DNA of 5,999 nucleotides from Octopus sinensis (Eukaryota). This document shows positions 1 to 5,999 of this stretch, in pieces. Under the pieces are notes generated by a model, which saw only the letters and a program-made list of their open reading frames with translations, did no database searches and was not told the origin of the DNA. The position numbers and the translations under genes were made by a program. The DNA lies in contig NW_021829515.1 of NCBI RefSeq assembly GCF_006345805.1, positions 1 to 5,999 of the forward strand. The letters are read 5' to 3'. How positions within the stretch are numbered: the first letter of the stretch is position 1; the number at the start of each line of letters is the position of its first letter.

Positions 1-40
1 CGTTATCCTTTGGTGAACCGCTAACTTATTTTATTGCATA

Positions 41-197
41 CGACTCCAGTGCTCAACTGGTACTTACTTCATTGACTCCGAAAAGATGAACGTCAAAGTC
101 GACATCGGCGGAATTTGAACTCAGAATATAGCGATGGGCGAAATACCGCTAAGTATTTCGCCGAATGTGCTAACGATTCTGCCAGCTCGCAGCCTTA
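41..197 (-). mobile_element. tRNA-derived SINE, 5' portion (head plus central domain), 3'-truncated
   Basis: The minus strand reads ggctgcgagctggcagaatcgttagc (A-box-like, about 169-194), then GAGTTCAAATTCC (Pol III B-box, 110-122). It continues gtcgactttgacgttcatcttttcggagtcaatgaagtaagtaccag, which resembles the Meta/MESC-type SINE central domain (family assignment from recall, not searched). A perfect 10-bp hairpin (137-146/153-162) lies between the boxes. Confidence 0.8.
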
Positions 198-244
198 ATC
201 TTAATAATATTAACCACTACAATAACCTCTACGCCATATGCCGT

Positions 245-324
245 GGACATATTGTGTAGTGGTTAAGAGCGCGGGCTTACTAACCCCAATATTCCGAGTT
301 CGATTCCAAAGCAGTGACTTGACC

Positions 325-356
<32 letters not shown>

Positions 357-543
357 CAACAATAACAATAATAATAATAATAACATCGAAAAATACCTTA
401 GGAATGAGAACCCAGGTTCGGTATTTCCCCAGGACACCTGAAGATGGAGGAGAGTATATCGGCCGAACAACAAACAAGGTGACAAATATCCGTCGAATGT
501 AAATAATGTACATAATTCCTCATCCCTTAAATATAGAACTGTA
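245..543 (+). mobile_element. tRNA-headed SINE-like element with internal trinucleotide tract and unique 3' body
   Basis: A-box/D-loop-like tgtgtagtggttaagagc (253-270), anticodon-arm-like gggc-ttactaa-cccc, and B-box GAGTTCGATTCC (296-307). The acceptor and T stems pair poorly, so this is not a functional tRNA. It is followed by a microsatellite and a unique segment at 384-543. The 3' boundary is approximate. Confidence 0.65.
322..384. repeat. Compound trinucleotide microsatellite (ACC)n(AAC)n(AAT)n
   Basis: Directly visible; stays in one 3-nt phase. Confidence 0.97.
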
Positions 544-793
544 TTAATAATAACGATCATTTTCACCACTCCACTCTTTAATTGGCTGTCTCATAAATAG
601 ATTCGATAACTGGGTCATTCTCGCCCTTCCTTTTATTTGTTTTTCCTCAACTGACTCATAAATATACTTCATAAATATCCTTATTTCAACAAAATGATTA
701 TCATGTCAGCTGAATAGGAACAGATTATTAAAGTTGCTCCTAATATTAAAACAGCGAAATTCCATTTAAAAGGAACATCATGACAACATGTAA

Positions 794-836
794 ACACACA
801 CACATTCACACACACACACACTCACTCACACACACA
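794..836. repeat. Imperfect (CA)n microsatellite
   Basis: Directly visible. Confidence 0.95.
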
Positions 837-839
837 TAT

Positions 840-980
840 TCTTTTATCCTTTTATTCTTTTATTTATTTCACTTACTTGACTGCGGCCATGCTGGAGCAC
901 CGGCTTAAAGGTTTTTCTTGTCGAAGAACTCGACCCCAGAACATACTCTTCGTGAGTTTAGTACTTAGTATTCTATCAGG
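840..980 (-). mobile_element. 3' fragment of a SINE-like interspersed repeat
   Basis: The minus strand reads ...tgctccagcatggccgcagtcaagtaagtgaaataaataaaagaataaaaggataaaag, a conserved-looking 3' end followed by a short A-rich tandem tail. I recall this motif from an abundant octopus SINE; this was not verified by search. No tRNA head is visible. Confidence 0.55.
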
Positions 981-996
981 AGTATTCTAAATTGTA

Positions 997-1115
997 ATTG
1001 GATGTCCATTTAGTGGTCATCCCTTATTATACGCATGTATTACAATTTTTCTGAATTTTCAGATTTTTTAAATTGATATTAATTAAATTAATATTCAATT
1101 TATCACCTTCATTAT
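997..1115 (+). repeat. Direct repeat copy 1 (119 bp)
   Basis: attggatgtcca...tttatcaccttcattat matches 1507-1646 except for 3 substitutions, a 1-nt indel and a 22-nt indel. Confidence 0.97.
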
Positions 1116-1304
1116 TTAAATTTTAAATAATTATGTTCTCTAACCGGCAACATTAGCTGCAGTGAATTATCTACTGCGAAACTGTTTCCGGGATTTAGCG
1201 CGCCAGAACTTAAACATTTGAAAATAACCCCAATGTAATCGGTAGAACTATGCACACATCTAATTTTATAAGGACAACTAGTGTATAGTTCTACAAACTA
1301 TATT

Positions 1305-1392
1305 GAATTAGAACGATCGTACTGAAGAGTCCACGGACGAGAAATTACGTAAGCAATTATCGGTAATGACGAAACTGGTCTACGATTAATTC
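1305..1392 (+). ncRNA. Type I hammerhead ribozyme with minimal helix III
   Basis: Stem I atcgta (1316-1321)/tacgat (1381-1386), extended by gaatta (1305-1310)/taattc (1387-1392) across a 5-nt bulge. Core CUGAAGA (1322-1328). Stem II gtc (1329-1331)/gac (1368-1370). GAAA (1371-1374). Minimal stem III C-UG-G. GUC triplet with predicted cleavage after 1380. Confidence 0.85.
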
Positions 1393-1506
1393 TGTATTTT
1401 GTATACTTTCATCTGCCTTACCCGCTTATGTTCTGGTGTTTGCTTAATTTTTCTAGAGAACATTCTTTCCTTTGTAGTTAGATCGTAGGTGATCTTCTTC
1501 TAGCAT

Positions 1507-1641
1507 ATTGGATGTCCACTTAGTGGTCATCCCTATTATACGCATGTATTACAATTTTTCTGAATTTTCAGATTTTTCTATATGCTACGCTACTGGTTTT
1601 AAATTGATATTAATTGAATTAATATTCAATTTATCACCCTC

Positions 1642-1646
<5 letters not shown>
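1507..1646 (+). repeat. Direct repeat copy 2 (140 bp)
   Basis: Second copy of 997-1115. It has an extra ctatatgctacgctactgg between T-runs and ends in a (TA)n tract. Confidence 0.97.
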
Positions 1647-1690
<44 letters not shown>

Positions 1691-1725
1691 ATATATTTAT
1701 ATATATATACATATACATATACATA
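1644..1725. repeat. Compound (TA)n(TG)n(TA)n(CATATA)n microsatellite
   Basis: Directly visible. Confidence 0.95.
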
Positions 1726-1849
1726 CTATTACTTCATCCAGAATGTTCAACTATTTCTAAGATGCTAGGGTAAAATTTGAAGGTGACTTGGCTACTAATT
1801 ATAGCAGGACGAGTCATCGCGTGGAGATTTCCTGGTTGGCTCATGCAAT

Positions 1850-3128
1850 TCTGGTTGGTGATGGTAGTAGTGGTGTCGGTGGTGGTGGTGTTGGTTGCGA
1901 ACATGTTGTTGGTGGTGGTGGTGATGGTGCTGGCTATTTTGGTAATAGTACTGGTGATGATGTCGGTGATGGTGTTGTTGGCGGTGGTTGTGGTGGTAGT
2001 GTGTTGCTTGTGGTGTTGGTGATGTTGGTAGTGATGATGTAATGGTAAGGATGTCGTGCTGCGGGTGGTGTTGCTGTTGGTGGATTTGGTTTGGAGATGA
2101 TGTTAGTGTTGATGTTGGCGACGGTGCTGGTGATGTTGTGGAGGTAATGGGGGTTGTAGTGTTGCATTTTTGAGAGGTGGAGACGAAGCTGGTGACGCTG
2201 ATGCTTCTGTTGTAGTTGTTCTTGGGGTGGGGGTGGCGGCGGCGGCGGCGGCGATGGTCATAGTGGCGGTGGTAGTGTTGGTGGTATCGGTATTGGTACT
2301 GGTCGCGGCCGTGTTGGTGATAGGGATATAATTTGTGCTGGTAGCTGTGGAGCGGTGTTGGGGATGGTAGTGTTAGTGGTGGTGGTGATGGTGAATTTGT
2401 TGGTGGTGTTGATAATGGCGGTGGTGGTGGTAGTGGTGGTGATTGAAATGTTGATGGTGATGCTGGTTGTAAGGGTGGCGGTGGTGATTGTGAAGATGGT
2501 GGCGGTGATGATGGTGATGTTGGTAGCGGTGATGGTGTTGCTGTTGATGGTGATGGTGGTGTTGTTGATGGTAGCGGTGTTGGTGGTGGTGGTGGTGATG
2601 GTGGTAGCATTGATGATAGTGGTAGTGATGGTGGTGGCGGCGATTAGGTTCCTTTTGGAGATGAAGATGACGTTTTTTCTACTTTGAAATGTCACCAATA
2701 TAGTCGTTGATAGCGATGGTGGAGGCGGTTGTTGTGGAGATAGTGGTGGTGATGGCGATGGTGTTGCAGCCTGTGTTGCAGCCTGTGCTGCAGTATAGGT
2801 GGTTGGTGGAAGTAGGGGGGCGGGACGGTGGTGTCTTCCTTGCTACTCGAGATGTCGTTGTTGCAGTTAATGGTTACACCGTTATTGTTGCTACCGTTGT
2901 TAATGGTAGTGGTGGTGGTGATGTTGGTAGTGTTGGTAGTGTTGGTGGTGTTGGTGTTGGTGGTGATGGAGGTGGTGGTAGTGGTGGTGGTGGTGGAGGT
3001 GGTCGCGGTGGTGGTGGTCGCGGTGGTAGTGATGGATGCCGTAAATGGAAGCGCTAGCGTTTTTCTTAGCATTCAAGATTTCATTCATATTGCTGTTGTT
3101 GTTGGTGGTGGTAGTGGTGGGGGTCATG

Positions 3129-3130
<2 letters not shown>
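1850..3130. repeat. Degenerate trinucleotide low-complexity region (GGT/GAT/GTT/GGC)
   Basis: G/T-rich plus strand with 3-nt periodicity. Stop codons interrupt all frames, and the translations are homopolymeric (V, G, T, P, H). Confidence 0.9.
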
Positions 3131-3201
<71 letters not shown>

Positions 3202-3256
3202 TATTATTTATTATTTTATTAATTATTATTCTTATTATTTCATCATCATCATCATC

Positions 3257-3330
<74 letters not shown>

Positions 3331-3440
3331 GTATTATCATCATCATCATCATCATCATCATCATTATTATTATTATTATTATTATTAGTAGTAGTATTAG
3401 TAGTAGTAGTGGTAGTATTAAAGGTGGTGGTGGTGGAGGT
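3131..3440. repeat. Alternating (ATT)n/(ATC)n/(AGT)n/(GGT)n microsatellite array
   Basis: Directly visible long, nearly pure tracts. Confidence 0.97.
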
Positions 3441-3772
3441 GCAGTTGTTGATTTATCTTGTTACTCCTGATATAGTTATTGTTGTTCTTTTTCCTGCTTC
3501 TGTTGCTATTACCGTTGTGGTTGCTGATGTGGTTGTTGTGGTTGTTGTTGATGATGATGTTGTTGTTGGTGGTGGTGGTAGTGGCTTGTGGTGCTTTCCT
3601 TGTTAATGGCGATATTTCTGATGCTTTTTCCTCGGTTATTCTTGCTGACATTATTGTTGTCGTTTCTAACCGTTGTAATTGCTTTTGTTATCGCTGTTGT
3701 TGTTGTTGTTGCTGCTGCTGCTGCTGCTGCTGTTGTTGTTGTTGTTGCTCTTGTTGTTGTTGTTGTTGTTGA
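3441..3772. repeat. (GTT)n/(GCT)n low-complexity region
   Basis: Degenerate GTT repeats ending in near-pure (GTT)n(GCT)n(GTT)n at about 3695-3771. Confidence 0.92.
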
Positions 3773-3904
3773 CGTGTAGTAAATCACCAATCATAAACAC
3801 AGTTGAAAGCTAAAGATGTTCTCACCGTTCCCGCCTGTCCGCCATTTTCCAAAAGTCACCTCATTAAGCTAATAAGGTGTTTACAGAGGATTCTCGCTAT
3901 AGGA

Positions 3905-4098
3905 ACACGTACACGCTGGCACATACACACGCACACGTACATACACATTATGTGTATCTATACACACACACACACATATATATATATACTTAGGCACACA
4001 CACATACGCACACATACACATTCACACAAGCACACATATGCGGATATGTGCATGTGTATATATGTATATACAGTCATACACAGTCCGACATATATATG

Positions 4099-4144
<46 letters not shown>

Positions 4145-4516
4145 TATAGATATATATATATACATATGTATAGTATACATACCATACATACATACATACA
4201 CACCTGCATACATACATACATACATACATACAAACATACATACATACATACATACATACATACATACATACATACACAACGGCATAGACACACACAGTTA
4301 AAGAAAGACGTATACACAGAATTACAAGCGCATAGAACCCTCCACGCACACATATATCTTCAAATACACATAGAACCATACAGATATAAATACACATAAA
4401 CACACGCGCAGAGATACAAATGGCCGCCGATTATACGCATTTACAAAAGACATGTACAAGAAAATACACTCATACAGTCGCGTATACGCACATACATGCA
4501 TACACACATACAACCT

Positions 4517-4569
<53 letters not shown>

Positions 4570-4594
4570 GCATACACACACGCGCGCACATATA
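3905..4594. repeat. Compound (CA)n/(TA)n/(TACA)n microsatellite region
   Basis: (TA)n at about 4104-4160, (TACA)n at about 4175-4275 and (CA)n at about 4519-4565, within degenerate alternating purine-pyrimidine sequence. Confidence 0.95.
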
Positions 4595-4718
4595 CAGGGT
4601 GCGGTGAATAAATTGTCGTCTAACTTACGCAAAGATGAAAATAATGCTGACATCTTATTTTAACAGATATATTTACCAAAATTACATAAAAATATCTTGA
4701 AATAGTAAAAGAGTAAAT

Positions 4719-5414
4719 TTATTCAATAAAATCGCCATTAGCTTCGACCACGGCCTCCAGACGACTTCGGAATCTCCTGCAACTCTTCTGGACAGTCTCC
4801 TTGTTTAAGTTGGTGAATGCTGTCATAATCCTTGCCTTCAACTTCAAGCTTGGTGTTGCAAGAAGTTTTGTTGGTCTCTGCTCAACTGCTCCGCATATAT
4901 AATAATCAAGGGGTTGCAGTCTGGAGAGTAGGATGGCCAGATGCTAGGGGTCATGTGGTCGCAGAAACTGTCTGACAGCTCTGATTGGGTTCTCCTGATT
5001 GCGTGGCATGGTGCAGACTCCTGTTTCCAGACATAGGCTCTTCCAGCAGCCACCCACTTGACCCAGGGACTTCAGTCACTTGATGTGGGCCTTGACTCAC
5101 ACGTGTGGTTTTTCATGTATGCGACGTCTGACCAATAAGTATCCAGACTGTAGCCATAGTAACGAAGCTAACGAAGCTAACGAAGCCTTGACTGTGAGGC
5201 TGTGTGGGAAGATGAAGGGAGGCATAACGTCGCCGTCACTAGCGATCACTCCAAATACTATGATGTTGACTGGATGTTTGACTTTTGTCACTCTCGGCAC
5301 ATGTCCTCATATTGACACCCAAAAATTCTAACGTGCATGTATTGGAGTTTCCGGCGCGAATGCAAAGCAGTACAGCATGTTGTTTCAAATTTCTGGCAGA
5401 GTAAATTGTGTCAT
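4719..5414 (-). pseudogene. Tc1/mariner-family transposase pseudogene
   Basis: Reconstruction across frameshifts gives MTQFTLPEI/KQHAVLLCIRAGNSNTCTLEFLGVNMRT (HTH-like, ATG at 5414), a deletion near 5300, VPRVTKVKHPVNIIVFGVIASDGDVMPPFIF, PWVKWVAAGRAYVWKQESAPCH, WPSYSPDCNP/DYYICGAVE and LKARIMTAFTNLNKETVQKSCRRFRSRLEAVVEANGDFIE* (stop at 4719-4721). It contains several frameshifts, an in-frame stop and an insertion. Confidence 0.92.
5098..5184. other. 87-bp insertion in the transposase flanked by 9-bp direct repeat gccttgact
   Basis: gccttgact occurs at 5089-5097 and 5185-5193. Removing the insert and one copy restores PHSLTVKAHIK. The insert ends in (taacgaagc)x3 at 5160-5186. Confidence 0.85.
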
Positions 5415-5538
5415 GATGCTGTTTCTTTATTTTTTCACAGACAGTGCCTAACTGACGCTACATTTATGTGTAGTCGCCAAAAACAAGACACTAACAATGC
5501 ATATGCGCGAAATTCGAACTATAAAATATCGACAATTT

Positions 5539-5656
5539 ATATATATATGTATATATATAAAATATGAATTAGAGATAAAACCACTATTAGGTAACTCAAA
5601 CAGTGATAGACATAAACCAATACATAAATAACAAATAATTAATATAATTAATATAG

Positions 5657-5687
<31 letters not shown>

Positions 5688-5785
5688 AAATTCAAAATTA
5701 AATTTTTTTTATCAAAAAGTATAAAAAGAATGATAGATATAATATAATAAGTAATGAGTAAATAATAATAAAAAATTGTTTTTTA

Positions 5786-5821
<36 letters not shown>

Positions 5822-5950
5822 ATATCTTCCTTCTTTCCTGAGCGTCCAATATACTTTATTGTTCCACGTCCTCGCGTTGGTGTGTTTTTTTGTGTTTTCT
5901 TGTTTGATTAACTATATATATAGTGTTTTTTTGTGTTTTCTTGTTTGGAT

Positions 5951-5996
<46 letters not shown>

Positions 5997-5999
5997 ATA
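5539..5999. repeat. AT-rich low-complexity region with multiple (TA)n tracts
   Basis: (TA)n at about 5539-5558, 5664-5686, 5790-5825 and 5955-5999. Confidence 0.9.
5882..5964. repeat. Tandem duplication of an approximately 41-bp unit
   Basis: gtgtttttttgtgttttcttgtttg(g)attaactatatatata starts at 5882 and again at 5923, differing by one G. Confidence 0.93.

Follow-up and report, generated by a model that had tools for sequence, protein, structure and literature searches.

A hammerhead-bearing, non-coding tandem family in the genome of Octopus sinensis with insertion features of Penelope-like elements

Animal non-LTR retrozymes are non-coding tandem repeats built around hammerhead ribozymes, with a unit length given as 170-400 nt (Cervera and de la Pena 2020, PMC7229834) and, in a later account, as 51-972 bp (Li et al., bioRxiv 10.64898/2026.07.22.740005). 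Two papers propose Penelope elements as the movers of these retrozymes and leave the mechanism open. For cephalopods, a squid genome paper only counts hammerhead matches, and among the papers listed by our literature searches none described a family such as the one reported below.

Penelope-like elements are described as leaving inverted 5'-truncated copies and a tail of 30-40 bp at one end only (Craig et al., 10.1101/2021.04.23.441226), and head-to-tail non-autonomous members are known from Chlamydomonas. A Penelope protein is reported to cut and extend both target strands at AT-rich DNA and to begin synthesis internally on the RNA, from two points of a stem-loop; the spacing of these points corresponds to the tail (Frangieh et al. 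2024, PMC11167929). Their hammerheads, minimal and with a palindromic helix III, represent an architecture described as dimer-dependent (Cervera and de la Pena 2014, PMC4209133).

Here, we describe a family represented by one copy in a window of 5,999 nucleotides from Octopus sinensis (RefSeq assembly GCF_006345805.1, contig NW_021829515.1, positions 1 to 5,999 of the forward strand). It resembles the animal non-LTR retrozymes in its structured, non-coding tandem units of low GC content (31-38%) with one type I hammerhead each, in its range from monomers to multimers, in the co-existence of Penelope elements and in a dimer-type hammerhead as found in axolotl. It differs from them by its unit of 531-545 nt, its short arrays (up to about five units observed) and a very long stem II; the circular RNA that has been shown for the animal retrozymes is, in this family, a proposed stage.

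The copy in the window and its hammerhead

A first-pass annotation of the window, made from its letters alone, had described a partial tandem of about 1.25 units with a period of 510 (997 to 1507), one hammerhead, no protein-like ORF and an end in a (TA)n tract. The copy does comprise 1.25 units and is 5'-truncated, the longest ATG ORF of the doubled unit encodes 25 amino acids, and both the ribozyme motif and the microsatellite could be located (Table 1). The sequence also restarts as described, but 510 does not hold as the unit size: positions 997-1136 recur at 1507-1646 with an offset of 510 at the start and of 531 beyond a 22-nt segment, which is missing from the first copy between 1065 and 1066 and present in the second. 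Since other family copies spanning that place contain the segment as well, the subfamily A unit measures 531-533 nt, within a family range of 531-545 nt, and the shorter period results from the 22-nt deletion in the first copy. The two copies of the repeated part differ by 3.4% substitutions and two gaps (147 aligned nt), and the unit at 997..1506 is 93.9% identical to the natural 533-nt unit of locus L005. The window copy is an old, partly decayed family member.

Table 1. Features of the element copy in the window
Feature	Position	Strand	Remark
Complete subfamily A unit	997..1506	+	5'-truncated at 997; 22-nt deletion between 1065/1066
Beginning of next unit, ending at the fixed 3' end of the long class (Penelope-type tail)	1507..1646	+	
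Hairpin of the family's short fixed 3' end, first copy	1029..1040	+	unit position about 44
Short-end hairpin, second copy	1538..1549	+	not the end used in the window
AT-rich hairpin of the family's long fixed 3' end	1111..1131	+	unit position about 150
Predicted long-range helix, 5' side	1133..1209	+	segments 1133-1142 and 1195-1209
Type I hammerhead, long stem II, minimal near-palindromic stem III	1315..1387	+	predicted cut 1380/1381
Predicted long-range helix, 3' side	1430..1463	+	segments 1430-1447 and 1454-1463
(TA)n microsatellite, likely target site	1644..1725	.	tract found in the window

The hammerhead of the window consists of stem I (1315-1321 with 1381-1387), the CTGAAGA box (1322-1328), stem II (1329-1370), the GAAA box (1371-1374), a stem III of 2 bp with a 2-nt loop, and the GUC triplet (1378-1380). 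The Rfam model Hammerhead_1 (RF00163) matches 1316-1386 with 24.6 bits (E 2.7e-4 in a 121-nt scan), under its gathering score of 34; a scan of the whole window against Rfam did not list the hammerhead and returned only microsatellite-driven miRNA matches. On its own the region folds no better than shuffles (z +0.78), and the catalytic fold lies 2.6 kcal/mol above the minimum. The duplex energy of stem III is -3.2 kcal/mol in the window vs -8.3 kcal/mol for the commonest form, relative to which the window carries a C-to-T change; on this modelling, the copy in the window may be an inactive ribozyme.

Of 305 cells scored for pairing in 26 family hammerheads that represent several subfamilies, 98.7% were paired, while slid controls collapsed, and stem I displayed 19 double changes vs 6.4 in shuffles, a comparison that ignores relatedness. 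Stem III comprises 1-2 bp and, over several lengths, forms a palindrome or near-palindrome; the cleavage triplet is mostly GUA or GUC (88 rows, four of them other repeats or mis-parsed). This architecture leads to the prediction that the hammerhead of the window would need a dimer, and the pattern of sequence conservation indicates that the element RNA is under selection.

The window holds other repeats. Common SINE-like repeats occupy 1-200 and 845-985 (76 and 114 of 423 loci, respectively), the latter directly 5' of the retrozyme copy. A repeat at 385-540, found in 10 of 423 loci, has relatives with a hammerhead-like core that is decayed here at about 437-470. At the far end, 5822-5999 is the 3' terminal part of a further repeat, which runs into (TA)n and has a duplication of its last 41 nt. 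Its relatives have a hammerhead-like motif immediately before this part, which is probably another Penelope end. Positions 4590-5540 form a decayed minus-strand repeat (9 of 423 loci) whose frames are reminiscent of a Tc1/mariner transposase; Pfam gave no match for the three frames located at 4719-5306.

Family size, fold and insertion anatomy

A single-copy sequence, which the first-pass annotation would have taken for a local duplication, is not what the genome contains, as the element matches by the thousand. In the 2.72-Gb genome of the species, the best 40 of 3,873 candidates gave 61 matches. Exact matches numbered 3,408 for a 16-mer near the 3' end (control: 1), and 2,721 for a 19-mer in the tail (control: 0). 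For the hammerheads, a 19-mer from A/B matched 72 times and a 20-mer from subfamily C 297 times. The first 100 of the 3,408 matches fell in 78 loci, and 77 of these 78 were true copies, which points to about 2,600 loci with the exact 16-mer as a lower bound. Most copies are short 3' fragments. Overall, we viewed 95 loci chosen for length or hammerhead, 78 unbiased ones, 50 drawn by the tail motif and 40 of subfamily C.

The family divides into at least five subfamilies with natural units of 533, 544, 545, 533 and 533 nt, in which the longest ATG ORF encodes 25-48 amino acids. Four of the units, compared pairwise, are 68-85% identical, and unit length, fold and hammerhead are kept across subfamilies with compensatory changes. 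Subfamily C is the youngest, with about 3% divergence between insertions. The first-pass annotation had considered the element longer than known animal retrozymes; this is so against the 170-400 nt of 2020 but not against the 51-972 bp of Li et al. (2026), and size alone is thus not new.

Folded as circles, whole units surpass shuffles (z -3.0 to -7.5, 25 shuffles); the unit of the window also folds better than its shuffles (z -4.68, 0/100), and a consensus fold contains long-range helices common to whole units; the element RNA is predicted from these models to be highly self-paired. The long-range helix of Table 1 is kept in 19 copies from five subfamilies, mostly by invariance or G-U changes, and many of the joints formed by 5' truncation and inversion are located in its 3' side.

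The 3' ends of the insertions fall into two classes. In the unbiased sample, 120 of 128 segment ends did so, 59 at unit position 15-60 and 61 at 120-175, and 105 of these 120 fixed ends adjoined (TA) or (CA) runs. The two ends lie about 105 nt apart, each at a hairpin kept in all four subfamily folds, and they are sharp in subfamily C, mostly at unit positions 46 and 158. Contigs of run X12 show loose (TA)n ends at 1040 (short end), and such ends also occur at 1113-1129 (long end). 5' ends are random in position. In inverted insertions the 5' ends meet and the 3' ends point outward, and 39 of 42 such pairs combine one short with one long end (p 3e-9 against 50:50), as do all 24 classifiable pairs of subfamily C (a separate set of 29 pairs, five of them with an unclassifiable end). 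The copy in the window is a single arm with the long end: its second copy stops inside the long-end hairpin, at 1641-1646, and the insertion runs back through the hammerhead to 997. Target-site duplications are not readable inside (TA)n.

Seven of 40 inverted pairs are disjoint, as in twin priming on one RNA, and in ten the short arm extends beyond the long arm. Fold-back as the sole source of inversions is therefore ruled out for 17 of the 40 pairs and does not suffice by itself.

The family thus displays a Penelope-type tail (two fixed 3' ends, with the extension on one end only). Its tandems are partial, its copies are truncated on the 5' side, the inverted ones included, and its target is a microsatellite. 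With the canonical EN+ Penelope-like elements (Neptune, Penelope/Poseidon) it shares the partial tandems, the truncation, an inverted 5'-truncated second copy, a one-end tail, two internal start points at stem-loops, AT-rich targets and a minimal hammerhead with palindromic helix III. It differs from them in lacking an ORF and in a tandem period that equals the whole 0.53-kb element; its tail is about 105-112 nt vs the 30-40 reported for canonical elements, and its start sites are almost strictly one per insertion side, whereas in the in vitro Penelope study the start site did not differ between strands. As for the class of the element, we consider it very probable that it is non-autonomous and mobilised by Penelope. 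The fixed ends, the tail and the inverted arms are not described for animal non-LTR retrozymes in the parts of that literature available to us.

A second family of the same plan was encountered (L133:340-880 and L333-L355), with a period of about 478 nt, a hammerhead resembling the present one in stem III, a spacing of about 75 nt between its two 3' ends, and inverted copies; an ORF was attached in 0 of 23 loci, and it has only a 22-nt motif in common with the tail of 997..1646. In a copy of subfamily B, the cut site of the hammerhead is occupied by a SINE-like insert of 400 nt (L066:1573-1973).

Template RNA and tandem arrays

The cut site was reached by 41 cDNAs, of which 28 continue for more than 30 nt beyond it and two stop within 1 nt. 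This read-through means that cleaved linear monomers are not the usual template, which leaves a circle or an uncleaved linear multimer. A sharp cDNA stop at the cut site was considered and rejected, as 13 of the 41 end scattered between +8 and -20.

Tandem copies, for which the first-pass annotation had suggested searching the genome, do exist there: the window copy has a single hammerhead, and arrays with two to five consecutive complete hammerheads occur in L103, L197, L198, L386 and L395. Dispersed copies range from monomers to 4.8-mers. Tandem neighbours numbered 26 in the first 100 of the 297 subfamily C matches vs 1 in 72 for A/B, a contrast inflated by the loss of exact motifs in older copies. 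Units diverge by 1.16% within arrays, 1.71% between arms and 3.04% between insertions, and units of one array are not identical (120 locus-private substitutions in single units vs 30 shared). The two longest arrays alternate as ABAB (L386:1256-3842 and L395:1634-3910, the latter ABABA at six columns), for which a dimeric template, a two-unit duplication and an assembly effect are candidate explanations. Dimeric circles as a rule were unsupported: ten arms exceed two units, and ABA patterns numbered 26 vs 59 others (p 0.74). Separately, one subfamily C haplotype has 11 of 11 exact matches in three loci (L391, L393, L395) of one chromosome (contig C2), tens of Mb apart.

We lean towards a circle as the template: multimers are most frequent in the youngest subfamily, arrays are homogeneous and come from many haplotypes, unit length and fold persist at 68-85% identity, stem I covaries, and stem III stays at least nearly palindromic. 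The private substitutions, mostly confined to single units, and the weak stem III of the window copy count against it. The principal alternative, in our view unlikely though to be taken seriously, holds that the same Penelope-mobilised element is copied from an uncleaved linear tandem transcript, the hammerhead being inherited from a Penelope pLTR without any circle and the arrays arising via template jumps or DNA duplication. Arrays of two to five units are available as sources for such a transcript, read-through of the cut site fits it equally well, and the ABAB alternation of the two longest arrays is accounted for by a duplication of two units at the DNA level. In vitro, moreover, hammerhead cleavage is reported to be dispensable, with unprocessed RNA as the main substrate of the Penelope protein (Frangieh et al., PMC11167929), so that linear tandem transcripts would also serve as template. 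Yet 5' truncation would shorten the sources in each generation, whereas the homogeneous arrays derive from many different haplotypes, and subfamilies at 68-85% identity have kept the same unit length as well as the hammerhead with a stem III of dimer type. Sequencing runs did not separate the two readings: in three runs guessed to be RNA and one untyped run, contigs covered parts of the unit and none spanned it, and none of the runs containing element sequence was recorded as RNA. As the 1506-to-997 joint is likewise present in DNA, the contigs argue neither for nor against circles.

Growth of the arrays in place, by insertion of single monomers or pLTRs followed by local unequal crossover into minisatellites (the scenario of Li et al. 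2026), would account for the likeness of units within an array, for the alternation in L386 and L395 and for a local duplication within L396; we regard it as very improbable, given that multimers abound most in the youngest subfamily and are rare in the older ones, whereas gradual growth would give the opposite, that both arms of inverted insertions are often multimeric, and that thousands of dispersed copies have fresh retrotransposition ends.

Possible coding partners and proposed cycle

The first-pass annotation had left the choice between a retrozyme and a Penelope-derived family, to be decided for an ordinary Penelope pLTR if all copies abutted an RT ORF. Among the loci inspected, no copy has an RT ORF directly on its 5' side, and the arrangement of an autonomous Penelope element, with an RT plus GIY-YIG ORF between pLTRs, was not observed. 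A comparison of 61 free 5' flanks revealed no common coding extension, the shared ones being one duplicated region and common repeats, and long copies extend 5' into further units (up to 4.77 in L386; 4.18 plus 1.26 in L395). The lack of a 5' ORF and the continuation into more units together identify a non-LTR retrozyme-type element rather than an ordinary pLTR. With a hammerhead per unit, tandem arrangement, no coding capacity and predicted self-pairing, the family is a non-LTR retrozyme as far as sequence defines one, and the two options prove to apply at once. That the copies represent solo pLTRs, left by 3' ends of an autonomous Penelope element that were truncated and whose full copies lie outside our sample, is hardly credible: all insertion signatures are those of Penelope elements, and the sample was bounded (150 of 5,029 GIY-YIG candidates scored, 68 Penelope-bearing loci compared), but each long copy extends 5' into another unit, up to 4.8 units, and no non-unit coding flank is common to them.

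Possible helpers were sought in the same genome. Several families with RT and C-terminal GIY-YIG are present, with the Cys linker given for Neptune/Nematis (Craig et al.), and Neptune-type RT plus GIY-YIG elements ending in (TA)n are abundant. Penelope ORF fragments occur near some copies (5 of 95 and 9 of 84 fetched stretches), either separated from them or tail to tail, with the exception of L106. In this chimera (L106:1929-2590), a 65-nt piece of the unit directly adjoins an abundant Neptune-type element at its endonuclease end and 3' UTR, in the arrangement opposite to an RT ORF 5' of the unit. Judging by its sequence, the joint resembles a template-switch product, and the Neptune-type partner is a candidate helper. 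Searches by GIY-YIG family (150 of 5,029 candidates scored), by the L106 partner and by nucleotide profiles retrieved no shared end in the 68 Penelope-bearing loci compared, and the own ends of Penelope-type elements in these loci had no homology to the unit or tail. The palindromic stem III pattern gave 108 matches vs 264 for its control and no helper. Intact Neptune-type ORFs exist in this genome; a very young element at L133:1174-4874, in which a 781-aa RT/GIY-YIG frame is preceded by a further frame, has many near-identical copies.

The absence of a helper with a matching 3' end among these 68 loci weighs against Penelope-mobilised circles when set beside the Chlamys non-autonomous elements (MRC1, Chlamys-N4_cRei). 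These are likewise Penelope-mobilised, with head-to-tail multi-copy insertions, short 5'-truncated copies and microsatellite targets. However, their 3' sequence is generally also that of the helper, and hammerheads are absent from most Chlamys elements, whereas the hammerhead is conserved in the octopus family.

On balance, we favour a high-copy non-coding hammerhead tandem copied by an autonomous Penelope-like RT plus GIY-YIG protein, likely from circular RNA. Tandem loci would be transcribed, and neighbouring hammerheads would pair through their palindromic stem III, cutting out monomers that would close into circles unable to cut themselves alone. A Penelope protein dimer would nick both (TA)n strands, and cDNA would start inside the RNA, one strand at each hairpin, rounds of the circle yielding 0.2 to about five units. 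The two cDNAs would then join at their far ends, or only one would be fixed, as with the long end in the window. More tentatively, and with somewhat more doubt than belief, the process may be rolling-circle reverse transcription of a ribozyme-made circle, in which a protein dimer would prime two strands at two hairpins about 105 nt apart, recognising structure and not terminal sequence, and multimers would be formed at birth.

The two-end tail and the inversion pattern, as a Penelope signature, lend support to the hypothesis, published but unproven, that animal retrozymes are mobilised by Penelope enzymes; counted here on an ORF-less hammerhead tandem, they provide positional evidence for that proposed link. 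The presence in one genome of two start hairpins, a young subfamily C and intact Neptune-type ORFs opens it to a direct test in the in vitro assay already published for Penelope. If the rolling-circle reading is true, the family would provide the first direct footprint tying an animal retrozyme circle to the Penelope machinery.
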